The notes beneath the pieces are model-generated. The model saw only the letters and a program-made list of their open reading frames with translations, was not told the origin of the DNA and did no database searches. The position numbers and the translations under genes are program-made. From a virus (taxonomy: Duplodnaviria; Caudoviricetes), in IMG/VR virus record IMGVR_UViG_3300033066_001528, positions 32,001 through 96,000 of that record: a DNA stretch of 64,000 nucleotides, one strand, 5' to 3'. Position 1 is the first letter of the stretch. Every line of letters starts with the position of its first letter. Below, piece by piece: positions 7,192 through 59,941 of the stretch.

Positions 7192-7425
7192 GAAGCTATC
7201 CTGTATGGTTGCCCAAGATGTGGGAAACAGAAGGGATACATTTTAAGCACCAATACGGGAAGTGCGGTGTTCCAGTGCTCCCACTGCACTAAGTTATTCC
7301 TAATCGTTGATGATAGTCTATCCAGGTCCCTTATCCCGGTGGAAGAGAATGGGAGTTTCCATTACCCAGAGGTAGAGCCCCATCCTCTAGGATGTCATGC
7401 GAACGGGGGGGTCAGCGATTTTTGA
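7171..7425 (+). CDS. Small Zn-ribbon protein
   Basis: CPRC...CSHC pairs; fills the gap between two minus-strand genes. Confidence 0.5.
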   Translation: MIAVHRHEAILYGCPRCGKQKGYILSTNTGSAVFQCSHCTKLFLIVDDSLSRSLIPVEENGSFHYPEVEPHPLGCHANGGVSDF

Positions 7426-7894
7426 GATAACCGAGAAGAACCCTATTTTCTGAGGTGTCGTCCAAAAAAGATACGGACATCGTGAGCAGATAGGTACAAT
7501 ATGCGTCCCCCATCTCAAAATCCGCAACGGTCACTTCGGGATTCGATATCGCGGTAGAAGTAGGTGTGAATTTAGGAAGAAGGCTTTTTATGGATCGGAG
7601 GATTAACCTACTTCGGTTAGGTGGTAACCAATTTGGATTCGTTGTTGGGTCCGGGGTATCTTCCGGATAATAGAGAATTACGGAAACAACTCCCCCATCT
7701 CCTTTGCCGACAACAGTGACATCCCCGACAAGAACACCCCTTAAACCTCCAGATCTAATAATAGAACCCAGTCGCTCACGGGAAAAAGCAGACTCCAACC
7801 ATTGGACTTTCCGGCTTTTCGTATCCGGTGGCTTACGGTCAAAAAACCAAGCATGTCTAATCATATAACGTTCTGCTACTTTGCGAGATGGCAT
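7412..7894 (-). CDS. Hypothetical protein with an N-terminal RKVAERY motif
   Basis: Likely start MPSRKVAERYMIRHA at 7894. Confidence 0.6.
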   Translation of the reverse strand: MPSRKVAERYMIRHAWFFDRKPPDTKSRKVQWLESAFSRERLGSIIRSGGLRGVLVGDVTVVGKGDGGVVSVILYYPEDTPDPTTNPNWLPPNRSRLILRSIKSLLPKFTPTSTAISNPEVTVADFEMGDAYCTYLLTMSVSFLDDTSENRVLLGYLKNR

Positions 7895-9525: not shown

Positions 9526-9953
9526 ATCAAAGACCTTTCTCTGGTTTTACCACCCGAGGTGCAATCCAATCTCTCAAACACAAGGGGCCTATCCGTCACG
9601 TTCCACCCGTTCCCCACGAAGTAGTCTCGGATCTCAGACTCTGTAGCGGAGTCAGGAACCCCACCTTTGAATGCAGTTTTCGGATAATGGACCCACCTAT
9701 CACCTTCGCGGACAAAGGACACCGTGATAAGGGGCACATGCTTTATCACGAAAGCAGTCATGTCGCGGAACGCAAGGAAAGACCAATTATCACGAAGAGC
9801 CAGCTCCAAAGCTTCCACGGAAGTGGTGATACCCCGGGTGTTGGGAATAGAAATCTTCCCCCGGGCCGTTTGAACGAACCAGGACGGTGCATAATCAAAC
9901 TCAGGGGTAAGCTCCATTACAAGAGAACCAACGGCGGGTGCTGTATTCATCAC
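9522..9953 (-). CDS. Hypothetical protein
   Basis: 143-aa ORF with 4-nt overlaps to both neighbours. Confidence 0.6.
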   Translation of the reverse strand: MMNTAPAVGSLVMELTPEFDYAPSWFVQTARGKISIPNTRGITTSVEALELALRDNWSFLAFRDMTAFVIKHVPLITVSFVREGDRWVHYPKTAFKGGVPDSATESEIRDYFVGNGWNVTDRPLVFERLDCTSGGKTRERSLM

Positions 9954-11269
9954 GTCACCTTACGACGCTGAATGTTAGAGTAGCACACAGGAACCGCAAG
10001 ATTGATTTTGTCCGTGGAACGAGCCCCAAAAGAAGCAATACCTACCTTGGACCCAAGCATCGCACTCACCTTATCTACCACGGAATACGGATCCAGGAAA
10101 TCACCCGAAGCGATCATTGTTTCGATCTCAGGACGAGCCGTTCGGAGCAAAGCGGTATTGGAATCCTGATAAAGCATATCGTCTGCCGGAGTGGGAGACG
10201 CAACTAGACCGGGAAAATCCGGCCTATATGCATCAACATACTTCCAGGTATTTTTCACCGCATCTAGATGGGATAGTGCAATAGAATCAACCCCACCAAT
10301 AGCCTCCAGTGAGTACCGGAAGAGAACTGCATCAAAATGACCCTGACGAAACGGACCCTGCCAACCGGCCGGGCTGTTATGGTATTCGGGATTATTCAAC
10401 GAAGCCTCTGTCGGAAACGGACCCTCTCCGTGACGAGTCATGTATGTCCGAAGACAACCAATGACGTGCGTATTCCCCGAAAAGTCAACTTCATTTAGAA
10501 GTCGCATGGCATTTCTTGGTGTTGTGTCAGACCAAGTGGTATGAGGGTGAAACCCATGCCACTTATCCAGCAGAACCCCCTGTGCCCCCTCGAAAATAAG
10601 AGGCTTTCCAGAAGCCACCAGATTTTTCATATAGGAAGTTTCATCAACAGTGTGGAGATTCCGAAGAAAACCAGCCATCCTGTCTTTGTAAGCTTCGGGG
10701 TCGAACCGCACGGACTCAAACCCCATCTCCACGGCAAAAGCATTGGCAAGGTCCATCTGCAAACGGAGTTTACGGGACAATGTATCCGGTGTATGAAGAT
10801 CCACCACACGGATCGTGGCTTCAGGATTGGTGTAGGACATGGAGACGGACTCCCCAAAACCCATACCACAAGTACCATGACGATCTTCGCCGCGAGCCAG
10901 TTCGCGAGTTCGATTCATTGCTTGGTGGAGAGGGGTGATAACCAGGGCCCCCATCGAAACGTCCAAAAGAGAGAAAGGATCACGAACCCCCTTGGAGGAA
11001 AGGACTTCAGACTCTCGAATCATGGCTGTAGGGTGAATAGCCATGTATCGACTGAGGAAAGTTCGGCAACCATGAAAAGTTGCCGAACCCCACTGGGCAA
11101 AAGTGTGATGCCGACCATCACCAGAAATGACGTTGTGCCCAGCCTGGGCACCACCGTTGTGACGAATGACAGTAGACCCCGGGTTGACGGAGGCAAGGAA
11201 GTCAACCGTCCCCCCCTTACCCTCATCACCAAACGCCAGACCCGTAACGATGTATGCTGTTTGGTTCAT
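9950..11269 (-). CDS. Adenylosuccinate synthetase-like protein (divergent PurA paralog)
   Basis: GDEGKG, GGAQAGH, HGTCGMG, FEGAQGVLLD and TYMTRHGEGPFPTE present; the TTGRxR aspartate-binding loop is absent. Confidence 0.85.
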   Translation of the reverse strand: MNQTAYIVTGLAFGDEGKGGTVDFLASVNPGSTVIRHNGGAQAGHNVISGDGRHHTFAQWGSATFHGCRTFLSRYMAIHPTAMIRESEVLSSKGVRDPFSLLDVSMGALVITPLHQAMNRTRELARGEDRHGTCGMGFGESVSMSYTNPEATIRVVDLHTPDTLSRKLRLQMDLANAFAVEMGFESVRFDPEAYKDRMAGFLRNLHTVDETSYMKNLVASGKPLIFEGAQGVLLDKWHGFHPHTTWSDTTPRNAMRLLNEVDFSGNTHVIGCLRTYMTRHGEGPFPTEASLNNPEYHNSPAGWQGPFRQGHFDAVLFRYSLEAIGGVDSIALSHLDAVKNTWKYVDAYRPDFPGLVASPTPADDMLYQDSNTALLRTARPEIETMIASGDFLDPYSVVDKVSAMLGSKVGIASFGARSTDKINLAVPVCYSNIQRRKVT

Positions 11270-28399: not shown

Positions 28400-29041
28400 A
28401 TGTTCACCCCTACGAAAAATGCCCCGTTCCAACTGGCAACGGACACCATCATGTACAAACCTGGGAAGGGTAGTGGGAATGGTGACATGGATGATATCGC
28501 CAACACCCTCGGACCTAAGTCCAGGAAGGTTCTATTTTCGCGCGGGACCACCGTCACATGGAACGGCGTTCGATCTGGTGGCCTTCTCGTTGTCATCGTG
28601 AAGCTACCCCATGGCGGATCCATCGGGTGGTATGGGGTCAATGAAAAAGACCTAGAACCGCCTGTTCGGTCTCTACGATCGTCCATCATTCGTCTGGCTC
28701 ACGCCAACCCTAAACTCAGGGGCGACCTACTGCCGCTACTCAAAGAGGCCGCAGTGAGAAAAACCATGACCAGGGAACAGATCGAGGGCATGGGAGCCGC
28801 CGTGATCAACAAGGCTTTGGACACCCTCGACAAAGAGCAGAGCAAACTCAACGGCGCCCTCATCGAGGCGGGGTTCGGGCACGTTAGGCTCCAGGAGATC
28901 ATGAGGATGGACCACCCTGTGGCCCAGCAGTATGCCGTGGTGTCGGGTCAGATCGCCCTCCTCCACGAGGAGATCGAGCGCCGCTATGGTCCCGGTGCCC
29001 CCTCCAGACTCCCACGTGGGTTTGGCCCGATCAAGCGCTGA
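28400..29041 (+). CDS. Two-domain protein with an internal copy of the LRSxLIRLAH leader
   Basis: SLRSSIIRLAHANPKLRGDLLPLLKEAA at about 28670-28750. Confidence 0.7.
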   Translation: MFTPTKNAPFQLATDTIMYKPGKGSGNGDMDDIANTLGPKSRKVLFSRGTTVTWNGVRSGGLLVVIVKLPHGGSIGWYGVNEKDLEPPVRSLRSSIIRLAHANPKLRGDLLPLLKEAAVRKTMTREQIEGMGAAVINKALDTLDKEQSKLNGALIEAGFGHVRLQEIMRMDHPVAQQYAVVSGQIALLHEEIERRYGPGAPSRLPRGFGPIKR

Positions 29042-30299
29042 GAAAAGCCCTTAGCCTCTCTCGAACGGCCTCCGGATCTCGTTTGAGTTCTCCCTCCCAC
29101 ACCACCAGACACTGGATGCCAATATCTGCGTAGGCATCAATGAGCTCCTGCTCGTGGTCAAATGGTGCCCTGCCCGTGAACATACGGGAGTGCCAAAAAT
29201 CCCCAAATGCCTCAACTACTTTGGTCACCCCCTTCTTGGGGTTCTCCGGGTCTGGACCTGGGAGAATGAAATCAGGGTTCTTGTGGTGGTTGAGTTTTGG
29301 GAGCCATTTCCAATAGGAAAAATCGCCAGTATATGAAAGGATTGGAGCAAGAGCGTGCAACCGTTGCTCAAACTTGTTGGGTCCATTTTTTGTGCGACCA
29401 AGCTGAAATGGATAGGAAAAATCGGGATGGTTGAGTCTAAAGGTTGTGAGAGCTTTTTTCCAGAAACCATCGATCTGGGAAGGGAACGCCACACCATATC
29501 GCTCCATCAAAACTGCACGAACCTCCCGTTTCCCCTCATCACTGGCAAAATAGTATTCGTTCCCGTACCTAGCTAGAACCGTGTCCAACTGGCGACGCCT
29601 CACACCTGGGTCCTGGTTCGTCCAATCAACACCATATCGGGCAAGGTTGGTCTGGCGAATGCGTTCAACCACTTCAGGGGTGCGAGCGGGTTCCGTGGTG
29701 CCGTACCGGGCAAGATTGGTGTTGTTGACCTTCTCCCGAATAGTTGGGGAGCGCATGAGCTCTCCCCCATACCTATCCGTAGTAGTCTCCCGAGTGCGCT
29801 CTCGGATCTCTGGTACCTGTTGAGGGTTCTCCGCTCCGTACTTGGCAACCATGGACTGACGGACCTTCTCCTGGACTTCCGGGCGGGAGAATGGATTGTC
29901 GCTACCTTTGAGGATTGGACGCTTCCCTTCGAGGGAGTCTTGAACCTTCTGGAAAGTGCTAGCTCCCTTGGCAAACGGGTTCTCCGCCCCATAACGCTGA
30001 AGGTTGGTTGCCTTGCGACGTTCAACAACCTCGGGCGCATGGGTTGGGTCCTCAACCCCATATCGGACCAGTGAAGTGGCAGACCGCTTGGCCAGAGACT
30101 CTGCCTTAGCCGTTTCAGGGTCGCGAGATTGCCACAGGGAGCAATCTCGTTTGTGGCGTTTCATCTGAGTCCCAGAGGTGGAAATGTGACCACAAACACA
30201 CGGATCGGGCGATAGCGCCTTTGGCCACCCAGGACAGATGGCCTTGTGTCTGGAGGTGATGGAAGGGAGGGGTTTCTGGCAGTGTGGGCAGAGGATCAT
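29031..30299 (-). CDS. Free-standing putative homing endonuclease (Zn-ribbon + YGxxNP repeats + Vsr-like nuclease)
   Basis: CPHC and CVCGH; repeated T.L.RYG..NP units; PDF...VEAFGDFWH...LVVWE. Confidence 0.75.
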   Translation of the reverse strand: MILCPHCQKPLPSITSRHKAICPGWPKALSPDPCVCGHISTSGTQMKRHKRDCSLWQSRDPETAKAESLAKRSATSLVRYGVEDPTHAPEVVERRKATNLQRYGAENPFAKGASTFQKVQDSLEGKRPILKGSDNPFSRPEVQEKVRQSMVAKYGAENPQQVPEIRERTRETTTDRYGGELMRSPTIREKVNNTNLARYGTTEPARTPEVVERIRQTNLARYGVDWTNQDPGVRRRQLDTVLARYGNEYYFASDEGKREVRAVLMERYGVAFPSQIDGFWKKALTTFRLNHPDFSYPFQLGRTKNGPNKFEQRLHALAPILSYTGDFSYWKWLPKLNHHKNPDFILPGPDPENPKKGVTKVVEAFGDFWHSRMFTGRAPFDHEQELIDAYADIGIQCLVVWEGELKRDPEAVRERLRAFLSA

Positions 30300-30311
30300 A
30301 TCCCCGTTACG

Positions 30312-30352
30312 CCAAAACCGTAGACAGAGGGGGATGTGACCCCTCTGCCTAC
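30312..30352 (-). terminator. Probable intrinsic terminator
   Basis: Minus strand GTAGGCAGAGGGG-TCACATC-CCCCTCTGTCTAC followed by GGTTTT. Confidence 0.55.
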
Positions 30353-30359
30353 AGAGAGG

Positions 30360-31259
30360 TCAAACGAACCCCCTCGGGCTGGTCACACCCCGGCCCACAG
30401 CGGGACCGAAGGCTGAGCGAACACCCATTCCATAGCGGGACTGCTGAAGACCTCTTGTGAACTTCGTGGTAGCCAGCTTGGCCTCACCAGCTTTTTCCAC
30501 TTGACTCTCGGCACTTTGTCTGAGCTGCTCGTACTTGGATGATCGCTCAAGAGATAGAGATATCCCACCAATAGAGTAATCGAACTCATCCACCACCCAA
30601 TTTGCGGACAGTGCGAAAGTAGCATGAACAATGGCCTGCCACAAGACAGCAGTTCTCCATTCGGGTTTCTCAATCACAAGCTGGTCGATTGTTCTCAAAC
30701 CAGACGTGTTGGGTGGAAGCATGTTCCACCAGTTCAGAGCCATCTCCAGGTATTCGGCAAACTCGGCGTCTTCCCATACCTGACCAAACACCCGGTTATA
30801 GGCACCAATATTACCCTCAGCCTCGGGGGGGCGAAAGTGGTAGAATTTATCAGGGCAATTTCCCAGAACCCACCCCGTACCCTGGCATTTGAATCGGTGC
30901 CAATCTTCAACCGTGATATCGTACATGAACTGCCGGTGCGGCAGTTCAACCACGGACAGAACGGGTATGTAGAGAACGGAGTCCCCAGCTACTGTGAGAA
31001 TCATGTCCCCCGGTTTGAGGCTCTCAGCTTGTACCTTGTCACCTTGACCCAACCCAAAGTATACGGGGTGACCACCTGTGAGGACAACCGCCCCAACCGA
31101 GCTGGTTACGGAAAGAATTGTCTCCCATGGGACTTCGTTCCTGAAGGTCTTCAGAATTCGCTTCCACACCACATCCCCCGTGGGGGAGACAGACTGAACG
31201 GTCAAATTCCCTTTAAGGTAGGTGTTTCGGATTTTCTCTCGTTGTTCGCTAGTTAGCAT
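30360..31259 (-). CDS. C-terminal half of a split virion (head-completion-like) gene: 134-aa IntC + C-extein
   Basis: Block B VLTGGHP, block F MYDITVEDWHRF, block G VLGN/C; ATG at 31259 overlaps the stop of the endonuclease gene. Confidence 0.8.
   Translation of the reverse strand: MLTSEQREKIRNTYLKGNLTVQSVSPTGDVVWKRILKTFRNEVPWETILSVTSSVGAVVLTGGHPVYFGLGQGDKVQAESLKPGDMILTVAGDSVLYIPVLSVVELPHRQFMYDITVEDWHRFKCQGTGWVLGNCPDKFYHFRPPEAEGNIGAYNRVFGQVWEDAEFAEYLEMALNWWNMLPPNTSGLRTIDQLVIEKPEWRTAVLWQAIVHATFALSANWVVDEFDYSIGGISLSLERSSKYEQLRQSAESQVEKAGEAKLATTKFTRGLQQSRYGMGVRSAFGPAVGRGVTSPRGFV
30858..31259 (-). mobile_element. Split intein C-fragment (IntC)
   Basis: Ends in Gly-Asn followed by Cys+1 (CPDKFYHFRPP). 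Confidence 0.8.
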
Positions 31260-32152
31260 TCCAGATCCTTTTCGGTCCACACTTCAAAGGACCATCCCTG
31301 AGAGGCAGAATAGTCTCTAGCTACACGGAGGCGGTTTTGTTCCTTGCTGTCCCCCGGCAACCCCAACACCCACGCGGATTTGACTTCCACCAGGGTCACT
31401 ATCCCACCCTCTCTCAAAGCGATGAAATCGGGAAGCATCCATTTACCGTTGGGTAGGCAAATACGGCGTTCGTACTCATAGAGCAAAACGGTCGCGTCCG
31501 CCTCCAGTTTGGCAACTGCTTTCACCTCGTAGCTACTACGAACAAAAACGCGGCCCGTTGTGCCTTTGGGGGTGTCAACCCATTGAGATTTTCCGCGGGC
31601 GTACTTTTCAGGATTGGCCCTCATTCGGAGCGTTTGCGACTCCGATCGCTTTTGTCTTTGCTCAGTGGATCGGTGGAAAGAAAGGAGTCTGTCCCGAACT
31701 GCAGTGTCAGACCAGAGGTTCTTCGAATGTACACCAGCCCGCTGTCTGTGATCCTCCGTCCAGGACTCACGAAGGTGTTGTTTCTGGGCATCCGTCAATT
31801 TCCGGCCTTTGAAGAAATCAAACACACCGGACTCCCACTGGCGTTCAAGTTGACCCGGACGTTTTTTGCCTTTCCAGGAGGTGCCGACATTCTTTCCGAC
31901 ACGCCTCACGGTAAACCTGGATGCTGGGTTCCACATGGCGTCTGTAAGCCTTTGGATGCCCCCCTGGCTCAAACCCGTGATCGCAAGCATGTCGGCCCAG
32001 GACGTACCCCGTTCGTGGAGTTCGGTCACTATGGCCTTCCTCGCCTTCACGATGAACTCGGAAACCTCCTTTGGAAGACGCCCCCTCCGGGCGAAATCAT
32101 TGGGTGTGATGTTGTGTTTTTCGAGAAGTGGGAGAAGGTCTGGGTGGATCAC
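31253..32152 (-). CDS. Free-standing endonuclease with a TnsA-N/PD-(D/E)xK-like C-terminal domain
   Basis: RSSYE...YEYE...PDF...LVEVKS; N-terminal HTH and basic NUMOD-like segments; lies between the split-intein halves. Confidence 0.75.
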   Translation of the reverse strand: MIHPDLLPLLEKHNITPNDFARRGRLPKEVSEFIVKARKAIVTELHERGTSWADMLAITGLSQGGIQRLTDAMWNPASRFTVRRVGKNVGTSWKGKKRPGQLERQWESGVFDFFKGRKLTDAQKQHLRESWTEDHRQRAGVHSKNLWSDTAVRDRLLSFHRSTEQRQKRSESQTLRMRANPEKYARGKSQWVDTPKGTTGRVFVRSSYEVKAVAKLEADATVLLYEYERRICLPNGKWMLPDFIALREGGIVTLVEVKSAWVLGLPGDSKEQNRLRVARDYSASQGWSFEVWTEKDLEC

Positions 32153-32158
32153 GGAAGG

Positions 32159-32659
32159 TCACTCCGTAGGACAATCTTTGAGGATGTCATGTAGCTCTTC
32201 CAGGCTTACCACAATCCGCTCCCCACCAGCGTCTACCTCGATCGTCTCTTCCCCCCCAACACACTGATCCCTAAGTAGAACCCGAAGCTTGTTAATCATC
32301 CCCTGAACGTTAGGTGAGTAGACCACGGGAACAACACCTGGGGACCTAACGGACCACTCCTGTACCACAACCGAAACAGGAGCACCAGCAGTCTGGGTGA
32401 TAGACCAACGAATACGATAGGCCCCAACAGTAGCAGAAGGGGGTACTTGCAGAGAGGCGTAGTATTCCCCAATCTGAGGATTGACCGGAACACGAGCCGA
32501 AGGACCAATCAGAACTTCCGTCTCCGGTGGACCTGGATCCACGTAGTAAATAGCGTAGGTTACGGAATAAGCATTTGCGGCAAACCCCCCACCATCCACA
32601 AGGTAAAGGTCAAGGTCACCTTGACTGATAGTCTGCCCTGGTGTGAATGAAGTAGTCAT
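32159..32659 (-). CDS. N-terminal half of the split virion gene: N-extein + 34-aa IntN
   Basis: ...LRVLLRDQ/CVGGEETIEVDAGGERIVVSLEELHDILKDCPTE* (block A-like). Confidence 0.75.
   Translation of the reverse strand: MTTSFTPGQTISQGDLDLYLVDGGGFAANAYSVTYAIYYVDPGPPETEVLIGPSARVPVNPQIGEYYASLQVPPSATVGAYRIRWSITQTAGAPVSVVVQEWSVRSPGVVPVVYSPNVQGMINKLRVLLRDQCVGGEETIEVDAGGERIVVSLEELHDILKDCPTE
32162..32263 (-). mobile_element. Atypically short split intein N-fragment (IntN, 34 aa)
   Basis: Starts with Cys1, block-A pattern CVxGxxxIxV...V.LEEL, then a stop codon. Confidence 0.72.
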
Positions 32660-32747
32660 CTATAATCGTGAGGAATATAGGGCTAACCGTGCAAGAGAAC
32701 CGAGAAGTCTTGCACCAAAGCCTTCAACTTCTCAGAGGGCGGTACCA

Positions 32748-33038
32748 CTAGTCTTTCTGCGTGACATATTTGAGAAGGTCCCTCAGCCGACCCTCAAGAG
32801 CCTCTGACTCCCCAATTGCTCTTTCTACCACGCTCGCCCCAACAATCCCACCTAAAAGTTTCTGGTCTTCCTTGAGGGATTTTGTGGTCTTTTCTTGATT
32901 GGATAGTGCCTTTTGTGCTGCTCCCTTTGCTTTAGCAAAGTCACTATCCACTGCTTCTTTAAGCAATGGGAGGAGATCCTTGCGGAGCTCAGGATTAGTG
33001 TGGGCCAGTTTGATGATCGATGAGCGTAGGGATGACAT
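32748..33038 (-). CDS. Leader-tagged small helical protein
   Basis: MSSLRSSIIKLAHTNPELRKDLLPLLKEA. Confidence 0.8.
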   Translation of the reverse strand: MSSLRSSIIKLAHTNPELRKDLLPLLKEAVDSDFAKAKGAAQKALSNQEKTTKSLKEDQKLLGGIVGASVVERAIGESEALEGRLRDLLKYVTQKD

Positions 33039-33062
33039 ACCTACACTGAGAATAAAAAGTAT

Positions 33063-33299
33063 CTATCGAAGAAGGCCCTTCATTGACCTAACCTCTTTAG
33101 CATAAGGATAGGCCGGAACACGAGCTACCCCACCGTAGAAACCCTGCTTAAGGTCATGGATATTGGTTACGGGCTCGAAATTGAAAAAGCTCTTGCCCGT
33201 TGTGTCTTTGGTGACTCCCCGAAAGGGAACGTTGGCTACCGACAGGTAGGCCGCATAATAGGGGTCACTAGTGGTGTAGTAAGCACTCACAGTAACCAA
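33063..33299 (-). CDS. Small phage protein (DUF5659-like)
   Basis: YTTSDPYYAAYL...FFNF pattern. Confidence 0.5.
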   Translation of the reverse strand: MVTVSAYYTTSDPYYAAYLSVANVPFRGVTKDTTGKSFFNFEPVTNIHDLKQGFYGGVARVPAYPYAKEVRSMKGLLR

Positions 33300-33302
33300 C
33301 CT

Positions 33303-33623
33303 TTACAAATTCCCCCGCATAGCTCTTTTCAACTCAGATCGGAAGGCATCCCATATAGCCATGAGAGACTCGGAATCCCTGGTGCCCAAAGATGCATTTC
33401 GGGAGATGATTTTCGAAATCTTGTCATGTGCTTCTCGTACAGAGGATGCGGCGGCCAGGATCTCTACTGTGATCTGATGTGTGACATCCTCATGACCAAC
33501 GTACAACAAGAAAGGGTTGTCATCTTCAAAACCACCAGTCTTTGTGAGCATTGGAAGAAGATGGGGTCTAAGAATTGGGCTGGTATGAGCCAATCGGATC
33601 AACTTTGAGCGCAAGGAGGACAT
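33303..33623 (-). CDS. Leader-tagged small protein
   Basis: MSSLRSKLIRLAHTSPILRPHLLPMLTKTGG. Confidence 0.8.
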   Translation of the reverse strand: MSSLRSKLIRLAHTSPILRPHLLPMLTKTGGFEDDNPFLLYVGHEDVTHQITVEILAAASSVREAHDKISKIISRNASLGTRDSESLMAIWDAFRSELKRAMRGNL

Positions 33624-43149: not shown

Positions 43150-45102
43150 TCACGATTTTCGAAACACCAGAACAGGTTCAGTTGCATCCCCACGGTTGAG
43201 TTTCGCCAAGGGCATAAGAAGAGTAGTGTCTAGACGAAATCCCTCTTCACGGGCTACCCCCACTGTCATATCCACCAGAGGTACAACCTGACCCTTCCCG
43301 ACAGTCAGGTCAGCGATGTTGAGTATGAGGGGACCCCCCAAAGGGAGAGATTTGTGGGATGACCTCACCACGGGCCGAAGAAACCCCTCAACCCACTGAG
43401 TCACGGTCGCACCGTGCTTCAACCAGGATTGTCCTTGGCTACGGGAATATCTCTCTCGATCGAAATAGGGGGGGGAGGTGAACACAAGGTCTACAGGAGG
43501 AGGGTTGAAATCCTCCGCTGGCAGACAATGAAGTTCTGCTTCGTACCCAAGGGTAGCTGCCAATTTGCGGTTCCCATCTAGGGTGTCCGGCTCTACATCC
43601 GTCCCTACGTATTTGACCCCAGCAAGATATGCTCCAAGGAGGCGACCCCCATAACCTGAACATGGATCCCACACAACTCCACCTTTAGGGCAGAAATGCT
43701 GGTAGATGAACTTGGCAACCGAAGGACGGAAGATAGAGGGTGTTCGGTGTTGCATAGTCACAGCGCGAAGCACTCGATGGGGAAGCACTGGATCCCCTAC
43801 CTTGAACTGGAATCGGATCGCATACTTGAGCTTTTCCGCTTTGTGCCAAGCCTCAAAAGCACTTTCTGCCCTACCCGCCGATGCCTTGAACCGATTGGGA
43901 AAGAAAGGGTTGCAAGCACCGCAACCAACAGGAGACCAGGGCTCAATCCTGTTCTCCTTGAGACCTATCACCAACGCAGAGAGTCTCCGAAGCTCATCCT
44001 CCCACCGTTGTTCGGAATGTTGAGGGAAAGGGAATTCAATATTGGAGAGGATCTTGTATACGTCCTCTACCCACTGCTTCTGCTCCAACTCGGGTAGGCC
44101 AGACCACCGTTTTGAGTCATAGTTAGCCAGGGCCACCTCGGCTGAGGTGCGAGAGAACAGTCGCCTGGGACGACCCATCTTCCTGGCTGCAACACCCACA
44201 CTCTTCAATCGACGGTGAACAGTGGACGAGCCAACGTCATAGATGTCTGCAATCTCATTGAAACTCATCCCTCCCTCGTAGAGATCCTTGACCTTGTCAG
44301 GGGTGAGCTCTTTGGCATTCCGGTCCCTATCCCTTCTAGCAGATTCTACAGGAAGCTTGTAGCTCATACATTCAGGGATGAGTGGTCCCACCATCTCGAA
44401 GAACTGGTCACTCTGCCCTGGGAACGCAATCACCGTATCGGAGGATGTAGTTCCGTGAACTTCTGGTCGGAATCCCAACTTGCGAAGAGCTTTGATTGCT
44501 CTCTTGAGGGTGATGTCCCCCAGACCAAACGTGATCTGGGGGTGAAACCTGTGTGCTAACCGTCCATCATCCAGGTACCAGACAGCCAGAACCAATGGTG
44601 TCATCTCATCCGACAGAGACACGGGAAACCTCTTCTTCCGATCAGGTGGTGGATAGAACAAATCATAGTAGGATCGAAGGGTTGGACAACTAACTGTAGT
44701 GAACCCCCTGCCGTGGAAGACCTTCCCTTCCCGGTCCGTCTTCGTGGTGTCAAAAACAGAAGACACGTAAGGACCGAGGATGTTGACCTTCCATTCCAGG
44801 TATTCAGCCTGAGCGATGCAATGACCTTCGTTATAGCGCGCTGATTCCTGACTGGTGGCATCCATGGATCCGTCCCCCAAAAGGCTCCCAATGAGAAGCT
44901 GGTGCTGCTCAGATGTCAAAGGGGGGAGCTGGGAGGTGATCCTCTGGCCCTTTGTACGTGTGGGTATCCCCCACTTCTTGCGTAGCCTACCCACCCGCAC
45001 CTGATTGATACCATACTGAATCGCAATCTCGGTCTCCGTGAGATTGTCGACTTCGTAAAGCCGACGGAGAATCTCTGGTGTCAAATCGATAAGTGAGAGC
45101 AT
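43150..45102 (-). CDS. LAGLIDADG endonuclease-HTH-DNA amino-methyltransferase fusion
   Basis: LIGSLLGDGS and AVWYLDDG; two HTH segments; DPCSGYGGR SAM motif and FTSPPYF catalytic motif. Confidence 0.85.
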   Translation of the reverse strand: MLSLIDLTPEILRRLYEVDNLTETEIAIQYGINQVRVGRLRKKWGIPTRTKGQRITSQLPPLTSEQHQLLIGSLLGDGSMDATSQESARYNEGHCIAQAEYLEWKVNILGPYVSSVFDTTKTDREGKVFHGRGFTTVSCPTLRSYYDLFYPPPDRKKRFPVSLSDEMTPLVLAVWYLDDGRLAHRFHPQITFGLGDITLKRAIKALRKLGFRPEVHGTTSSDTVIAFPGQSDQFFEMVGPLIPECMSYKLPVESARRDRDRNAKELTPDKVKDLYEGGMSFNEIADIYDVGSSTVHRRLKSVGVAARKMGRPRRLFSRTSAEVALANYDSKRWSGLPELEQKQWVEDVYKILSNIEFPFPQHSEQRWEDELRRLSALVIGLKENRIEPWSPVGCGACNPFFPNRFKASAGRAESAFEAWHKAEKLKYAIRFQFKVGDPVLPHRVLRAVTMQHRTPSIFRPSVAKFIYQHFCPKGGVVWDPCSGYGGRLLGAYLAGVKYVGTDVEPDTLDGNRKLAATLGYEAELHCLPAEDFNPPPVDLVFTSPPYFDRERYSRSQGQSWLKHGATVTQWVEGFLRPVVRSSHKSLPLGGPLILNIADLTVGKGQVVPLVDMTVGVAREEGFRLDTTLLMPLAKLNRGDATEPVLVFRKS

Positions 45103-45273: not shown

Positions 45274-46155
45274 TCAGCGAGTGACGGTGAGGCGAACGAG
45301 ACCCTTGGGGTTGTAGGCCCCAATACCGAGGTTCTCGAACATTGAGAAACCGATGGTGCGAGCCTTTGGATCGTCGGCACTCAGGACGGTCAGTTCGGTA
45401 CGAACGGGGATACGGCCAAACATCTCCGGTTCGCAACACACGTACACCGTTCCTGCGGGAACGAGACGCGAGGTGATAACCTGGGCTCCCCAGAGGGTAG
45501 CCTGAAGTCCGGTCTTGAGGAGAACAGCCTGCGATTCAATGTCGAGAATGTCCCGACCGAACTTACGGATGTCCGCGTAATCCCGTGCGTTCATAAAGAC
45601 GCGCGCAACCCGGAGGTCATGCCGCTCAATGAGTGCCCAAGCGTCAGCGAGAACTGCACCGTTAAGCGGAGCTACAACGGGGAGGTCTGGGTTGGTTCCA
45701 CCAGGAACGCTATCAAATCCGTTAACGGCGATAGCGTCAAGGACACCGAAGACACGTATATCTTCAGCGGCCTGAATGGAAGCCCGACCCAAATCTTGAG
45801 CGCGCTCGATCAAATCGAATCGACGCTCACGGATCTGGGTTAGTGGGATCTCTGGGTTCGAGGCAAGCTCAAACAGAGGGAAGATCACACGTCGTGGCTT
45901 GGTGATGGCGAGGATGTTCTCCCCTTCCTCACCGACCACGTATGCGGTTACATCCGGATCCTTGTCGTAGATTGGCAGAGCCCCATCGGGGAGCTGTTCA
46001 ACCAGGAAGGTCTTTCGACCAACGGACATATAGTCCCGACGAAGACGGAGTGGCTGAGTCATAGAAGCTGCCAGCTTCTGACGACCGGCTGCTGTCCGGA
46101 TGAAGTCACCAATCAAGGCTTGCTTGTTGGCGTTCTCAACATTAGGGTTAGTCAT
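45274..46155 (-). CDS. Major capsid protein (HK97 fold)
   Basis: Follows protease, scaffold and decoration genes; ED..VF, VFMN..Y.DIRK, LWGAQVITSR..P.G.VY, ENLGIG..NP.G pattern. Confidence 0.85.
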   Translation of the reverse strand: MTNPNVENANKQALIGDFIRTAAGRQKLAASMTQPLRLRRDYMSVGRKTFLVEQLPDGALPIYDKDPDVTAYVVGEEGENILAITKPRRVIFPLFELASNPEIPLTQIRERRFDLIERAQDLGRASIQAAEDIRVFGVLDAIAVNGFDSVPGGTNPDLPVVAPLNGAVLADAWALIERHDLRVARVFMNARDYADIRKFGRDILDIESQAVLLKTGLQATLWGAQVITSRLVPAGTVYVCCEPEMFGRIPVRTELTVLSADDPKARTIGFSMFENLGIGAYNPKGLVRLTVTR

Positions 46156-47070: not shown

Positions 47071-48507
47071 TCACTTGAAGATTTCGCTGATGTTGGGAGC
47101 GGACTCCCAAAGCTTCGAGAGATTTTCCACGTCACGATCCGCGACAGCCGTTGGGACCGAACCAATGGCGCGAACACCATTGCTAGCCTTACGTGGCTGT
47201 GGCCTTACGGCAGCGGTCTTGTTGGAGCGGGCTTCTTTAGGTGTCTTCTCCTCTGCCTTCTCTTCCTTTACGTCGGATTTGGCAGCAGCATCTTCCTTCT
47301 TCTCGTCATCTCCGGCAAACTTGCTGCCGTAGAGGGAGTTGAGCTCCATGTCATCGAAACCACCATCATCAACGAGACCCATTGGGTCCTCATCAATTAC
47401 CACGTCCTCATCCACAACGGGAACACCATCGAGTACCGCATCATCAGCTAGCATGTCATCGAGCATCGCCTGCTCGTCGTCGCCCAGCATAGCTTCCTTG
47501 GCATCCTCCTTAGGGGCATCTTCCTTCAGCATTTCTGCCAGGAGAGCTTCGTCCTCGTCATCCTCATCCGAAGCCGTCATACCCTCATCAAGCATGGCCG
47601 CCAAAAGAGCCTCATCCTCATCATCTTCGGACGCACCCTTAGTCTCTTCGTCCAACATCGCAGCCAAAAGGGCTTCGTCCTCATCCCCAGCCAGATCCGC
47701 TAGTTTCCCCTGTTGACGGTAATTATAGTGCTTGGGGTCATTCTGGTCCCCGGGCATATCGGATGCCTTGCGTGAACGGGACCGTGCTTCCTTCTTGGTT
47801 TCGGACTTGTCCTCATCCTTGCTATCGGACTTGTCCTCATCCTTATCCCATTGCTTCTTAAAAGCCTCGGGAACCTCCCCGGCGGCTTTCGCAACACGAG
47901 TCCAATACTTAGCAAGACGTTGGAAGCGAGCTGCCTTCTTACCAGCAGTTTCCTCACCGGCTTCATCCTCATCGTCAGTATCTTCGTCTTCGTCAGCCTT
48001 TTTAGAAGAGGTCTTATCCTCGTCCTCTTCCACCATAAGGTCATCGGCTTCCTTGCCCTCTTCCTCGTCTTCGGCAAGGCGCTGAAGAGTGGCCTGGATC
48101 TGACGATCTGGGAGACTCATGAGATCAACGGCCTGATCTTCAATGGCAAGTTGAGGGGCACCCTGACCCAGCATGGCGCTAGCAATTCGAATGCACTTTG
48201 CAGCCTTCTTCTCCATCGCCTTAACGAGGCTAGCGGAAACACCACGTGGGAAATAGTGCTTTGGATCGGTGGCCGGATGGCCTTGAGGCTCATCGGTGCC
48301 AGGAAGAGCAGGGTGAGCGCTGTTCGGGTAAGGACCTTTGGTTGGGTCCTCCGCCCAGGAGGACGTGTCACCGTTCTCGTAATCATGAGGGCCGGGATCC
48401 TCATAAGCTGCAGGATGGTCTAACGTCTCCGGCTCATTATAGCCAGGAGTTGCTGGACCGGGGGAAGCTTTGCGATTGGTCTTGGCCCAGGTAAGTCTGG
48501 TTCTCAT
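47071..48507 (-). CDS. Putative capsid scaffolding protein (very acidic)
   Basis: Lies between protease and decoration/MCP; repeated DEDEALLAAML; many K/R-x-A motifs; ATGA overlap at 48507. Confidence 0.7.
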   Translation of the reverse strand: MRTRLTWAKTNRKASPGPATPGYNEPETLDHPAAYEDPGPHDYENGDTSSWAEDPTKGPYPNSAHPALPGTDEPQGHPATDPKHYFPRGVSASLVKAMEKKAAKCIRIASAMLGQGAPQLAIEDQAVDLMSLPDRQIQATLQRLAEDEEEGKEADDLMVEEDEDKTSSKKADEDEDTDDEDEAGEETAGKKAARFQRLAKYWTRVAKAAGEVPEAFKKQWDKDEDKSDSKDEDKSETKKEARSRSRKASDMPGDQNDPKHYNYRQQGKLADLAGDEDEALLAAMLDEETKGASEDDEDEALLAAMLDEGMTASDEDDEDEALLAEMLKEDAPKEDAKEAMLGDDEQAMLDDMLADDAVLDGVPVVDEDVVIDEDPMGLVDDGGFDDMELNSLYGSKFAGDDEKKEDAAAKSDVKEEKAEEKTPKEARSNKTAAVRPQPRKASNGVRAIGSVPTAVADRDVENLSKLWESAPNISEIFK

Positions 48508-49955
48508 TTGATTTCCTTCTGTTTCCCGTCGGCAAGCCGACTTTGATGTGCTGACATGACGGCTCCAATACGAATGATAGATTTGATTTCCGGTGATGTG
48601 GGTGCCCTGTTTAGGGCTTTGCCGCAAGCATCCAGAAATTGTTGGAAGCTACCATATCGATTAGAGGGTCCAACCCGTAGGGCGGCCGAATAGACAGTTT
48701 GTGGAACTGAAATACCAAAAACGGTATTAAGACCCTCTACCCGCCTCACAACATCGGCTGTTGTTTTAGCCGTAGCTACAATCATCCTAAGAGAAGACCG
48801 ATAGAGCCCACCCTGTTTGATGATAGTGTCATTGGGTGAATCTGAAGAAGGTATAGAAGGTACTGGACCCTGTAATTGGTCCCGCACCCGCTTCTTAACT
48901 CTATCCACAAGAGCGTTAGTTAGCTCCGTCTCCGCGTCATCAAGGATCCCCTTGGATGGCTTAGGTGATTCCTTTTTCTCACCATCCAAATTGGCGGGCT
49001 CCCCAAATGGGTTCTCGTCCGGCTGGTACCCCTCATCCTCGGACCCAATCTTCAAATCCCGAGCTACTTTCTGAAAAGCCGTATGGACCACTTCGGGAGG
49101 GGCGGTGGTAAAAATCTTCTCCAAAAGGGCAGCGGTACGAGCCGAGTCTTTAGAGCTTATTGAAATAACATTCCGTGCCACAGCCCCTTTGAAGGCCGGG
49201 ACTTCCACCCAGGAAGCCTCAATAAATTTAACCCCTCCGGTGGGCTCAATTCCCTCATAGCCGCAGAGCTCTGCAATTCTGTGCTTCCGACCCGACTCAT
49301 CAAAAAAAGTATTGCCCTTCTCGTGAAGAACATGTGTACACATTTCGGTTTCATCGGCCGCCCAATTACCGCATTTTGTGCATATGGAGCCGTCAATCGA
49401 GCAACCCATTGAAAGAGTGCTAATTCTCCCGCTCTCTATGTCTTCAATGAGTTGAGTATGCTTTCTGTCATTCGCGACGAGAATGTCAACATATAGGCTG
49501 TCACCTATATCTCTAGCAACGGCATCAAGGATTCTCCCCTTGGAGAGCTCCTCAATCTGGACATGCTCAAGAAACGAATGGCCACCGATGAAAGTTGGAT
49601 AAGACTTGAGGAGGACAGGACGGGAGAAAGCATCAAGGTTGTTGTTGATGTAAATATCACACTCTGGCTTCACCCGATAGGAAGCGGTTTTACGAACAAC
49701 CTTTTTTCCCCCAACAACAATAGACCCAATCTTCTCTCCCGGCACGGCTACTGTGTCTACGCTTGCGACAATAGTAGCGTGTGTCAGAAGGTACTTCGAG
49801 GGGTCAAATTCGGAGCCGAGAATTTTAGAGGCTTGGGTGACAAGATTGCGATCGGCTCTAACTTTTCCGCTAGCCACTCGAATATTGTCCCAACCCCCGT
49901 TGTTGAGATTGGTGGTTTTGACAACTCTTGCATTTGCATATCGCAGAAAAGGCAT
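48504..49955 (-). CDS. Prohead maturation protease with a Zn-ribbon insertion
   Basis: LEH...KGRILDA, LSMGC..CTKC..C.H, FIEASWVEVPAF (HK97/herpes-like protease pattern). Confidence 0.8.
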   Translation of the reverse strand: MPFLRYANARVVKTTNLNNGGWDNIRVASGKVRADRNLVTQASKILGSEFDPSKYLLTHATIVASVDTVAVPGEKIGSIVVGGKKVVRKTASYRVKPECDIYINNNLDAFSRPVLLKSYPTFIGGHSFLEHVQIEELSKGRILDAVARDIGDSLYVDILVANDRKHTQLIEDIESGRISTLSMGCSIDGSICTKCGNWAADETEMCTHVLHEKGNTFFDESGRKHRIAELCGYEGIEPTGGVKFIEASWVEVPAFKGAVARNVISISSKDSARTAALLEKIFTTAPPEVVHTAFQKVARDLKIGSEDEGYQPDENPFGEPANLDGEKKESPKPSKGILDDAETELTNALVDRVKKRVRDQLQGPVPSIPSSDSPNDTIIKQGGLYRSSLRMIVATAKTTADVVRRVEGLNTVFGISVPQTVYSAALRVGPSNRYGSFQQFLDACGKALNRAPTSPEIKSIIRIGAVMSAHQSRLADGKQKEIK

Positions 49956-56119: not shown

Positions 56120-59100
56120 TCAAAACCTACCTTCCGGCTCCTCTTCCTTGGGCTTATATTTGAGCCCGAGATACCCGGCAATTTTCCCAACCACATCAGT
56201 ATTTTCAGCTAGGGCTCGACCAACCTCACTGTAAAGACCCCTGAGAACCTCGTTGAAAGACGAATCTTGAAGAGTGAGAACGTCGCGCTTGAGCTTCTCG
56301 GATGTAGTGAGAGGATCTATGTTGAGCAACTCAAGAATGACATCCACGTCCAGAGAGCCTTTCTGGTAAAGGTTGAAAAGGGCATCGAAAGTGTCACTGT
56401 TGTCCCGCAGGGCAAGGCGGGTGAAAGACAACGTAGGGGTGATGACTTCCTCGTTACCATCCTCATCAACCTCAATAAAACCCATTCGGCGACACATGGG
56501 TTCAAGCAACTTGTTCTGAACCATATCTTGGAGCTCCTCCCGAAGAAGCATGTATCTGGTGTTGATGACCTCCAGATTGATCCTGTCACCAGAATAAGAG
56601 GATTCACCAGAGAGAAGTGACTCTGTCACACCCAACCCTGCGTAAAGCTGCCTGTCGGTGATTTCGTACTCGGTCGAAAGTTCAAGGAGCCTCTGCTGGG
56701 AACCCATCTCTTCCCATCGAAGTTCAAAGTTTACAATGATAGAGTAATCAGGATCCTGGAGAGCATAGTCCACCTGTTCCCGAACCTCGTCCAGTTGGTC
56801 TGCGGAAGCCCCCTCCGCCATCACAATACGAATGGGAGTCATGTGTCTAGATGCAATGGAAGTTTGGGATTGCCTTAGCTTGTCGCGGTACACCAGAGTG
56901 TGAAGACAGTTCTTTATCATCACTTTGGAGGTAACAAGAGAGTGATCCCCTTTCACATCGAAGGAATAGACATCACCTGTATACGGAACTGAATCGATTT
57001 TTTCAACTTTCCGGGTTAAAAAACCGCTCCTAAACCTGGATTTCCATCCATTCACTTCTCGCCATTGGATCCGAGAACCTTTGATCGAACCCCTCTCGGC
57101 CCACTTGCGCACTCCCTCATAACGAGTGCACTCCAACACGGGGAAGGATTTATCGGGGTACTCGTAAGTCTTCTCAACCCAATCGTTCTTGACCTTGGAC
57201 CACCAGCGACGGGTCCAGCTATGTGCCTTCTTGTGGGTCCAACGTGTATGGGTAGGAATACCCACCCGATTACAAAGGAGATGTAGCTGGTGGATGAGGT
57301 TATGGTTGTCCAGGGTGACGGAGATGACGGATTGTCTACCGTGGGAGAGGTACCCATCCGTATCCAAAACCCCACGAAGGAGTGCTAGGATGTGACCCTC
57401 TGGCAGATCGAATACCCACCGTGGAATCCTCTTCGTCGTGCAGTCCCCCCCCATGGTATCCAGGAACCACCGAGCTAGCAATTGGTCTTTGAACCGAACT
57501 GACAGGTTGGATTGTTTCGTCCCCGTCCCATAGGGGGGCTCTATGATGGCCGCTCCAAAGTAGAGGGTAGCCAGTTTCAGGACCAGGGCATGGAGTTGGG
57601 GGTCTCCCTTCCCGAAGGTCCACCCAATGGATGCGACGTTCAGTCCATCGGTCGTTGTCCACACGTCCCCGTCTCCCAACCACGTACCAAGGAGGTAACA
57701 GAAAGCTTCATCCAGGGGGATGGTGTTCACGGGTGAGGTATAGGTCACCGTCTTAGGGGATGGTGGAGTGAGAGCATCCCCCATGGGATACCAACGGGTA
57801 GATTTACCCTTGCCTCTGGGGGAATCTTGGAGGATGATCTCCTCGGTCCTCAGTCCGTGGGTCTCCCTAAGCTGGTTGGCATATAGGATGACCGTTGATC
57901 GGGTCAGACCTGTCTGATTTGCAACTTCCTGGTAGGTAGCCACCGTTGATTCCGTGAGGTTGGTGAGCCATGTGGCCAGAGATTGCTTTTTACGCTTCGC
58001 TTTCCCAATGGACTTGTGGTCATTGGGGTAGGAGAAAGTGACACTCAGTCCGTTGTCCGTACTCACACTTTGAACCGTGAGGGTCCGGATTGGGGACCGT
58101 CGGGGTTGTGTGGTGAGGGTTCTTCCCTGCCACCAATGAGATAGATTGATCTCCGTGGGTGGTGGACCCTCTGGAATCACATGAGACTCCAACATGGTAT
58201 CCCCTGGTTGTAGTTTACCGGACTCTAACCAGACATCCTGGTCGCCCCGAACGCACAGGACTTTATGATCAGATGTCAACCGCAGTGGTGTCTCCTCCCC
58301 TTCCAGGTAGAGGTGGGTGACTGTCTCATCAACGGGCCGGGATCCTTTGGTAGCAGGTTGGAACCTACCCTTGTGGGTGAGCAGTAGATCCGTGGCCGTA
58401 TCGACCCCCTCCACAGGAACCTCCTGGATGACCCCATCTCTCTCAATCGTTACCGGGGTACCAGGGAGAAGGCACCTTTCCAGGATGGAGTGCCCATGTG
58501 GCTCATACTGGCTTTTTTTACGAGCCATACAATAGACAAAAGATCCGGCGTCCGGATCCGTATTTAGAGGAATGTTTCCCCCTTCCACGATGGCACCAAC
58601 GACATCTTGGGGCATGGAACGAACGATTCTCTCAGCATTTTCGTCTCCAGCAATGGCCCTGTTGACAATGTCTTTAGTTTTCGAGTCCGGGATAAGCTGA
58701 ACTAAAACCTCATCGGTAAAAGGGAATGCCTCCATGTGAATCTGCTCAGGAGGCATAACCCGGAGAGCCGTCCACCCCTTGTAATTCCTCCGCAACCATT
58801 TTTCAGCCCGTTCATCAGCGTCCGGATAAGGGACCTTTTTTTCAGTTGGGTCCCCGTTAGCGTCCAACTCTTGAATGGTCTCATGAGTAACGGATTCTGG
58901 CATATCCGGAGAAGTGTCCTCGGCAAAAACCCACACTTCACCTAAAAGATGGTAGTCATGTACAATCTCAATCAACCGATGTAGAAGACCTACTTTTTTC
59001 GCCCATTTTGTGCAGAAGTCAAGGGACTTGAGTGCAATGTCACGATTTTTCGCTTTGGGCATCCCAAGACGGATTTTGGAGAGTGGTAGTTCTGTATGTA

Positions 59101-59703: not shown

Positions 59704-59941
59704 TGGATTTAGTCAGATGACCCGTCTTATAGGCTACACGGAGGACCCTCTTCAAGAGCCCCAAATCCTTAGCGGACCCCAAAAAAAGCTTCTCCCAAGA
59801 TCCACCAGCTTTAGCAAATACCGAAGCCACCTTCAAATATTCGTCCCCTTTGGGGGTCACGTCACCACCATAGGTAGCCGTAAGAAGTCGTCTGATAACT
59901 CTGTGGTCGGCTCGGATAGGACTTTCCACTGTAACCTTCAT
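59696..59941 (-). CDS. Hypothetical small basic protein
   Basis: ATGA overlap with the terminase stop. Confidence 0.6.
   Translation of the reverse strand: MKVTVESPIRADHRVIRRLLTATYGGDVTPKGDEYLKVASVFAKAGGSWEKLFLGSAKDLGLLKRVLRVAYKTGHLTKSNE

Follow-up and report, generated by a model that had tools for sequence, protein, structure and literature searches.

Background

In fractured genes the two halves of a split intein are kept apart by a free-standing homing endonuclease gene; such genes have been described for gp41-1, NrdJ-1, IMPDH-1, TerL and other loci (PMC2677866). Their published hosts are enzymes of DNA metabolism and the terminase, while the endonucleases belong to the GIY-YIG or Vsr-like (EDxHD) types (PMC2677866). 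The locus considered in this work lies in a 64,000-nucleotide stretch of viral DNA (called the window, which always means the whole stretch), corresponding to positions 32001-96000 of the 123,912-bp IMG/VR virus record G000. It consists of three tightly coupled open reading frames (ORFs) on the minus strand at 30360-32659. We consider it very probable that this is a real fractured gene: the gene of a virion protein, presumably a head-to-tail adaptor, has been split by an endonuclease gene inserted into a mini-intein, and the protein would be rebuilt by trans-splicing through an atypical split intein of the S2 type.

With the fractured genes of Dassa et al. this locus shares the three-ORF phage layout on one strand, the overlapping or coupled ORFs, the existence of uninterrupted and contiguous-intein alleles, and the same invasion model. 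It differs in the host, which is a virion adaptor, and in the endonuclease, which is a TnsA-N-like PD-(D/E)xK enzyme rather than a GIY-YIG or Vsr-like one. Moreover, most of the inteins of Dassa et al. have their split between blocks B and F, the canonical site, whereas here the split precedes block B. The system is of a known kind, since fractured genes that combine a split intein and a free-standing endonuclease have been described, as have atypical splits of the S2 type; for the virion-protein host, the type of the endonuclease, and the size and combinatorial variety of the family we found no description. The literature searched contains no split intein in an adaptor or connector gene, nor this host, endonuclease type or family, although its coverage was incomplete and this absence is a weak argument.

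Natural atypical split inteins of the S2 type are divided after helix alpha1, which leaves an N-terminal piece (IntN) of 25 amino acids (aa) in AceL-TerL and 37 aa in GOS-TerL (PMC13014065, PMC11766414). The present intein has in common with them a phage origin, a metagenomic source, an IntN that is short (34 aa) and stops behind the first helix, and a long C-terminal piece (IntC; 134 aa versus 104-115), and its Cys1 and Cys+1 are as in AceL-TerL. It differs in that the extein is an adaptor and not a terminase, and in its penultimate Gly. PDB searches with IntC and with the family profile gave no significant match to a solved TerL or Cat intein. In the S1 group the split follows strand beta2 and IntN is 16 aa long in VidaL and 15 aa in PolB16 OarG (PMC10189870); these inteins are likewise naturally split near the N-terminus, while their S1 site, an IntN half as long and, in PolB16, the Ser1/Ser+1 pair distinguish them from ours. 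The closest solved sequences to IntC are the mini-inteins of Mja KlbA (2jmz) and Pho RadA (4e2u), which align in blocks B, F and G but are contiguous, archaeal, and placed in unrelated hosts. As for the host protein, its modelled C-terminal domain resembles, at middling Z scores (9.7-10.6), adaptors of the T7 gp11, P22 gp4 and T4 gp13 type in the helical bundle, beta-hairpin and C-terminal arm; the model has an extra N-terminal immunoglobulin (Ig)-like domain, and there is no detectable sequence similarity to them.

Organisation of the locus

The upstream ORF (32659..32159, minus strand, 166 aa) encodes the N half. Its first 132 aa (N-extein, 32264..32659) end with ...KLRVLLRDQ and are predicted to form an Ig-like/macroglobulin-like beta-sandwich and the first helix of the adaptor domain. 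The remaining 34 aa (IntN, 32159..32263, including the TGA stop) read CVGGEETIEVDAGGERIVVSLEELHDILKDCPTE and comprise Cys1 with block A, followed by a probable first helix; the tail of this piece (DCPTE) is variable. The middle ORF (32152..31253, minus strand, 299 aa, GTG start) is the endonuclease gene. The downstream ORF (31259..30360, minus strand, 299 aa from ATG, beginning with MLTSEQREK) encodes the C half and consists of a 134-aa IntC (30858..31259) and a 165-aa C-extein with its stop codon (30360..30857). IntC contains block B (T61-G-G-H64), block F (MYDITVEDWHRF, with MYDITVED in this region) and block G, where the intein part closes with ...VLGN134. It is followed by C135-PDKFYHFRPP and the rest of the protein up to residue 299. 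The C-extein, C+1-PDKFYHFRPPEAEGNIG..., is predicted to supply the remaining adaptor domain, to form a beta-hairpin at DYSIGGISLS and to end in a flexible arm.

The spacing of the three ORFs agrees with the tight coupling proposed in an earlier reading of this stretch (below, the original prediction), as do their starts and stops. The GTG of the endonuclease gene lies 6 nt past the TGA of the N half and has a GGAG about 8 nt upstream; the ATG of IntC overlaps the endonuclease stop (ATGCTAA) and has an AAGGA upstream. The automatic ORF call extends the C half to a GTG at 31280. However, ATG 31259 is the likely start, since all 44 aligned relatives begin at the corresponding M-L-[ST] position. 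About 900 nt separate the IntN stop from this conserved ATG. The endonuclease is in frame with the N half both in the window and in the relative L001, while IntC is out of frame, and in another relative, L003, the frames are different. A read-through model, in which the three parts would form one maxi-intein, was rejected on these grounds. The scan for promoters and terminators found no more than chance.

Uninterrupted homologues and the proposed splice junction

The relatives were collected with searches of different scope. The search with the C half yielded 943 proteins and that with the N half 133, and in both cases the classes were read among the best 120. A profile of the exteins, run against 1.84 billion representatives, gave 479 clusters, of which 150 listed representatives were classified by allele. 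Residues of the N halves were measured by regular expression in 93 proteins, C-side residues were counted in 100 IntC-bearing proteins, and the alignment of IntC includes 44 sequences.

Among the best 120 proteins of the C-half search, 22 are uninterrupted (295-320 aa) and read ...LRxLLRDQ|NPDKFYHFRPP, with identities of 51-79% to the N-extein and 71-77% to the C-extein. P0086-P0091 and others have 295-301 aa and are 73-77% identical to the C-extein. The junction is exactly LLRDQ|(N/C/S)PDKFYHF. When a profile of the uninterrupted homologues was run against the 124-kb record, its positions 1-133 matched the N half and positions 133-298 the C half; a two-part match of this kind is far beyond chance. 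The same profile found no further copy of the adaptor gene in the 124-kb record. A contiguous homologue covering both halves also exists in a cultured phage, Tunturiibacter phage Tunturi_5, in which gp319 (283 aa) is annotated as "head-tail connector protein". The expectation that the joined exteins have contiguous homologues around an LLRDQ-CPDKF junction is borne out by these data.

In addition, two proteins carry contiguous mini-inteins at the same site (P0049, 450 aa, and P0071, 477 aa; LLRDQ|C[IV]GGEE ... [HS]N|[CS]PDKFYHF), with the IntN-like part running directly into the IntC-like part. A contiguous-intein allele also lies at 6001-7353 of L005, and an uninterrupted one at 6001-6888 of L004.

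Intein features of the two pieces

In the N half, Cys133 directly follows ...LLRDQ and provides block A with its nucleophilic first residue, which is present in 93 of the 93 family N halves measured. IntN is 29-43 aa long in 92 of them (median 33), with a single outlier of 66 aa. It is acidic, with a net charge of -8 (family median -7), while the first 45 aa of IntC carry +4 (family median +3). Blocks B, F and G are all within IntC, and only block A is in IntN. T61, H64 and N134 are invariant in the 44 aligned C halves, and TxxH and the terminal Asn occur in 100 of 100 IntC-bearing proteins, with Cys (32) or Ser (68) at position +1. The short acidic block-A fragment and the distribution of the other blocks over the C half had both been proposed from the window, and the family upholds them.

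Sequence comparison with known inteins points in the same direction. The Pfam family PT-HINT matches IntC with E 3.7e-5, under its curated cut-off, and among inteins in the PDB the best matches are Mja KlbA (2jmz, E 1.1e-7) and Pho RadA (4e2u, E 2.4e-4). A profile of the 44 C halves matches 17 solved inteins at E <= 0.01. Residues 28-134 of IntC align with residues ~62-166 of the solved inteins, so that the missing ~61 residues are to be sought in IntN together with the first 27 aa of IntC. With E 0.25, the IntN profile gives a weak alignment to the Pab PolII intein (residues 5-38), which the IntC profile also matches, from residue 54 onward (position 18 of IntC). Because IntN has the pattern of two strands followed by LEELHDILKD, we infer that the split is located after helix alpha1, at the S2 site, and that this is an atypical split intein.

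A model of the complex between residues 129-166 of the N half and residues 1-140 of IntC, each with its alignment, reached ipSAE 0.87 in three runs, whereas the best of three controls gave 0.02; the mark used is reached by 58 of 80 solved complexes and by 2 of 110 mismatched pairs. The partners have pLDDT of at least 87, and at least 90% of the contacts are common to the runs. In the modelled interface, residues 130-135 of the N half (with Cys133) face T61-H64, block F (109-115) and residues 132-135 of IntC (N134/C135). Together with the matches to PDB inteins, this bears out the expected complete Hint fold as a likeness in the model, which proves neither binding nor chemistry. Since inteins are well represented among solved structures, the result may partly reflect memory of solved folds.

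The original prediction drew attention to the non-canonical penultimate Gly and regarded the intein as new. The Gly is real, although it is ordinary in this family: among the 100 relatives the penultimate residue is Ser in 58, His in 22, Gly in 11, Lys in 8 and Asp in 1. The split is indeed atypical, but the window has one allele of a widespread family and not a one-off intein.

The host protein

Neither Pfam nor PHROGs gave a match for the N half, the uninterrupted homologue P0087, Tunturi_5 gp319 or eight neighbouring ORFs, and the extein profile had no sequence match in the PDB at E <= 10. The first AF2 model, built with 20 close sequences, was poor (pLDDT 63.5), and structure searches with it returned mainly Ig-like domains and no more than hints of adaptors. 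A better model was obtained for P0087 from a 46-sequence alignment (pLDDT 84.2, pTM 0.62). In this model residues 1-105 form an Ig-like/macroglobulin-like sandwich (4u48_A, Z 9.4, root-mean-square deviation (rmsd) 2.4, 89 aligned), followed by a helix (114-126), a loop with the intein site (site 1, after residue 130), a helical bundle, a beta-hairpin (222-233) with a second intein site (site 2) at its start, a long helix, and a flexible C-terminal arm.

With Foldseek this improved model again matched mostly Ig-like domains, and the adaptor matches come from VIA-align. For residues 113-277 of P0087, about 18 phage portal-tail adaptor or neck chains were found among the top 50, at middling Z scores of 7.3-10.6. 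These include 9nwi_A (Z 10.6, rmsd 4.4, 113 aligned), 9k09_d (Z 10.6, rmsd 3.6, 113 aligned), 8jov_2 (Z 9.9, rmsd 2.9, 98 aligned) and T4 gp13/gp14 9lu4_D (Z 9.7, rmsd 4.0, 112 aligned), as well as 7wmp_m, 7z47_A, 9d80_B, 8zkk_B, 8ck1_F, 9bgm_b, 8q01_b, 8vb4_M and 5ydn_A. A weak link is given by phrog_17327 ("head-tail connector protein"), matched by 7 of the 46 family members (best E 8.6e-6). The gene is located downstream of the genes for TerL (59938-63120), portal (56120-59407), protease (48504-49955) and major head protein (45274-46155), all on the same strand. The fold matches are consistent with each other, and taken together with phrog_17327 and the position downstream of the head genes they make a head-to-tail adaptor (neck protein) the best assignment, which, the Z scores being middling, we regard as probable. 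The virion protein of neck type suggested for this locus accords with this.

The endonuclease gene between the halves

The middle ORF matches the Pfam family TnsA-like N (PF08722) with E 1.5e-4 and 22.6 bits (curated cut-off 26.5). Its homologues form 64 clusters of ~300-aa proteins, many of which have a precomputed PF08722 match. R205-S206-x-x-E209, P241-D242 and E256-V257-K258 are invariant in 23 diverse members, so that the C-terminal part reads RSSYE ... PD ... EVK, while the N-terminal half is conserved and has a helix-turn-helix look. Judged by this classical E...PD...ExK motif, the intervening ORF is a TnsA-N-like PD-(D/E)xK nuclease, in line with the endonuclease assigned to this place before. 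PDB phmmer searches with it, and with the DUF7487 protein encoded downstream, gave no meaningful match. The match of the endonuclease to phrog_218 ("head closure", E 1.2e-5) was not accepted as a function, and this label is taken as carried over from neighbouring genes.

The endonuclease gene belongs to the locus in other phages as well. Its homologue A2Y38_19460 has a locus tag consecutive with that of an N half (A2Y38_19455), and the gene is found between the halves in L001, L003, L007 and L008, relatives with identities down to ~50%. In the distant relatives L006 and L009, only shorter ORFs (3634-4023, 129 aa, and 3238-3768, 176 aa, respectively) stand between the retained split-intein halves; they have the look of endonuclease genes in decay, an outcome expected from the homing cycle. 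Position, presence/absence polymorphism and shortened copies are circumstantial evidence for a homing function. A separate observation concerns P0282 (493 aa), which combines 81% of the endonuclease with lyase_1/ASL_C2 domains of the adenylosuccinate or argininosuccinate lyase type and may represent either an invasion of a lyase gene by this endonuclease family or a fusion made by gene calling.

Distribution of the split allele and a second intein site

The split allele is represented by at least 100 N-half clusters (of the best 120) and about 85 C-half clusters. The four-gene layout is repeated in an uncultured phage of 485 kb (LR745208.1), whose exteins are 60-68% identical to those of the window. 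DNA nearly identical to the window locus occurs in at least 14 DNA metagenome runs (wastewater, activated sludge and river; several studies) and also in two wastewater metatranscriptome runs. Two DNA contigs from other studies span the whole stretch, with 8 and 16 substitutions and no insertions or deletions.

The second intein site is located at ...NWVxDEF|...|[ST]YSIGG. The 150 listed representatives of the adaptor gene include every combination of the two sites: empty at both, contiguous at either or at both (the latter in P0311), split at the first, at the second or at both, and mixed. In the window site 2 is empty (VVDEF-DYSIGG, ~30588-30590), whereas it is occupied in L003, a close relative of the window phage in which the last ~60 residues of the C-extein are identical. 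A whole split-intein cassette is thus present in one of the two phages and missing from the other. In L003 (6001-8321) the adaptor gene is in three pieces, with a second split intein of the form DEF|S...HN|T-YSIGG. The order is: the N half, the TnsA-like endonuclease, IntC1 with the middle extein and IntN2, a DUF559/Vsr-like endonuclease (7283-7717, between the halves of the site-2 intein), and IntC2 with the C-extein.

The site-2 intein starts with Ser1, closes with ...HN, is followed by Ser or Thr at +1 and has a short IntN (roughly 33-45 aa); its sequence makes it a candidate for a natural Cys-independent atypical split intein, a kind for which PolB16 is the sole example named in the literature consulted. 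One may suggest that the adaptor gene of this clade of huge phages serves as a natural workshop of atypical split inteins. In such a workshop the sites after RDQ and DEF would each be empty, contiguous or split directly behind the first helix; all combinations would occur, among them genes in three pieces that are reassembled by two split inteins orthogonal to each other, with site 1 being Cys-dependent and site 2 using Ser1 with Ser/Thr+1. We give this broader suggestion an even chance of being correct.

Proposed mechanism and its alternatives

We suppose that a mini-intein was formerly present in the adaptor gene after ...LLRDQ. Into the coding sequence of this intein, just after the first helix (S2), a free-standing PD-(D/E)xK endonuclease gene would then have been inserted, so that the upstream ORF kept an IntN of 34 aa and the downstream one an IntC of 134 aa. 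The three ORFs are probably co-transcribed and translated by coupling. The acidic IntN (-8) would dock on the basic N-terminal segment of IntC and complete the Hint fold, after which the chemistry expected is that of class 1: thioester formation at Cys1, attack by Cys+1, cyclisation of Asn134 and an S-to-N shift. The product would be a 297-aa adaptor of ~33 kDa with the junction LLRDQ-CPDKF (junction peptide ...LLRDQCPDKFYHFR...), released together with free intein pieces. The probable targets of the endonuclease are alleles of co-infecting relatives that have no intein or no endonuclease gene, and cutting them would spread the whole cassette.

Several points weigh against this reconstruction. 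The spliced product is deduced from sequence and a model rather than from experiment. A penultimate residue other than His slows Asn cyclisation in some inteins, and the window has Gly at this position. However, 78 of the 100 relatives likewise have no penultimate His, and since only 22 have it, Gly may be considered as an ordinary state in this family. The record is estimated by CheckV to be 29% complete, which implies a genome of ~430 kb, and an intact second copy of the adaptor gene is possible elsewhere in it. The contigs from RNA libraries may stem from contaminating DNA, and contigs hide rare spliced forms. The adaptor call rests on Z scores of ~10, a weak PHROG link and the annotation of another record, and the Pfam score of the window endonuclease is below the curated cut-off.

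The most serious rival, which we nevertheless consider unlikely, supposes that the intein pieces are dead for splicing and persist as a module of non-covalent dimerisation, so that the adaptor works as two chains, comparable to some fractured phage genes that function without ligation. The penultimate Gly would suit this explanation, and the complex model supports tight association and is silent on chemistry; furthermore, fractured genes without inteins are described (Dassa et al., PMC2677866). Docking alone, however, needs none of the residues Cys1, TxxH, terminal Asn and nucleophilic +1, which are kept in all of the 93-100 diverged relatives, and, as the structural model suggests, a Hint domain of 168 residues within the helical bundle of the adaptor would probably disturb ring assembly. 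Considerably less credit can be given to a pseudogene broken by a homing endonuclease, with the adaptor supplied by another copy or the phage being defective. Only 29% of the genome is in the record, which leaves room for a second copy, yet the 124-kb record has none, both halves are intact and conserved ORFs (exteins sharing 60-68% identity with the 485-kb relative), and more than 100 clusters and many independent assemblies show this layout, with nearly identical DNA in at least 14 runs.

Homing endonucleases of phages often reside in group I introns, and the interval with the endonuclease could be imagined, as the original prediction also considered, to be removed at the RNA level, by a group I or group II intron or by other splicing, to give a contiguous intein or gene. 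We hold this for very improbable, because no Rfam family is found in 28500-33500 even at E <= 1, IntN ends with a stop codon while IntC has a conserved ATG and its own ribosome-binding site, and the relative frames of the three ORFs vary between relatives (window and L001 versus L003). The contigs of the RNA libraries are also colinear with DNA over both borders and have no joint (X15, 31673-32490 and 31165-31315; X16, 31886-32380), though this argument is weak since carry-over of DNA is possible. At 31353-31514 there is no cover in either RNA run, and further parts lack it in one or the other, which says nothing either way. A joint in the DNA run X3 (from 30733 to 31919, sides of 21-28 nt, with 1194 other letters in between) stems from another relative and was disregarded. 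The event was originally placed at the protein and not at the RNA level, and these data favour the same placement. Least probable of all, to the point of being negligible, is that the split arose as an artefact of assembly or sequencing, such as a false stop or frameshift in a maxi-intein: the three-ORF layout is found in independent assemblies and studies (L001, L003, L007, L008), and the two spanning DNA contigs from other studies contain no insertions or deletions. We therefore prefer the fractured gene with protein trans-splicing as the explanation of the locus.

Significance

Natural split inteins with a short IntN are few, with AceL-TerL, GOS-TerL, VidaL and PolB16 being named, and they are valued because so short an IntN is accessible to peptide synthesis, which serves the semisynthesis and labelling of proteins (PMC13014065, PMC10189870). 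The present locus would add one to their number. The family, with its more than 100 diverged natural variants in which the catalytic residues are conserved, represents a ready set for screening of activity and orthogonality. If active, the site-1 family would provide more than 100 natural variants of a short-IntN intein, and the site-2 family the second natural Cys-independent atypical split intein after PolB16. The wide occurrence of the family lowers the uniqueness of the window locus and raises the value of the family.

From the evolutionary viewpoint, the locus would widen the range of fractured genes, which covers enzymes of replication and packaging, to a stoichiometric part of the virion, which must be ligated in time for head-tail joining, and would add a TnsA-like PD-(D/E)xK enzyme to the endonucleases known inside split inteins. 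If the broader suggestion of a workshop is true, free-standing endonucleases would be able to split inteins repeatedly at the S2 loop, besides the canonical endonuclease site. The empty, contiguous, split and endonuclease-decayed alleles, available side by side, form a clean data set for the homing cycle. The expectations of specialists are not upset by these findings; their value is practical, for protein engineering, and lies in data for the evolution of inteins and endonucleases.

Other genes in the window

Immediately downstream of the adaptor gene lies a homing-endonuclease-like DUF7487 gene (29031..30299, minus strand, 422 aa; Pfam DUF7487 E 2.6e-34; phrog_3339 "homing endonuclease" E 2e-27). 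It has this position both where the adaptor gene is split (window, L001, L003) and where it is uninterrupted (L004), and is a neighbour of the fractured gene located outside the intein. Before it, at ~30320-30345, there is a GC-rich hairpin (CAGAGGGG-TCACAT-CCCCTCTG) followed by a short T run. Hairpins upstream of free-standing endonuclease genes were noted by Dassa et al. (PMC2677866).

Other selfish elements are found among the head genes. The TerL ORF (59938-63120, minus strand, 1060 aa) contains a LAGLIDADG maxi-intein (LAGLIDADG_3, E 8e-22, aa 343-423; Intein_splicing, E 1.3e-8, aa 169-560), which was also recovered when the whole record was searched. The portal ORF (56120-59407, minus strand, 1095 aa) has weaker matches to LAGLIDADG_3 (E 6.7e-5, aa 673-724) and Intein_splicing (E 0.006, aa 373-830), and probably holds a second maxi-intein, in this case in a virion protein. 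Directly after the major head gene, an ORF of 650 aa (43150-45102, minus strand) combines LAGLIDADG_2 (E 6e-21) and helix-turn-helix domains with a C-terminal match to DNA-methyltransferase PHROGs. The head module is crowded with selfish nuclease elements, which comprise the inteins, the 650-aa ORF and the two endonucleases at the adaptor gene.

Outside the head module, the ORF at 9950-11269 (minus strand) matches phrog_1211, "2-aminooxy adenylosuccinate synthetase" (a PurZ-like label), with E 4e-77, which hints at a modified-base pathway in this phage.

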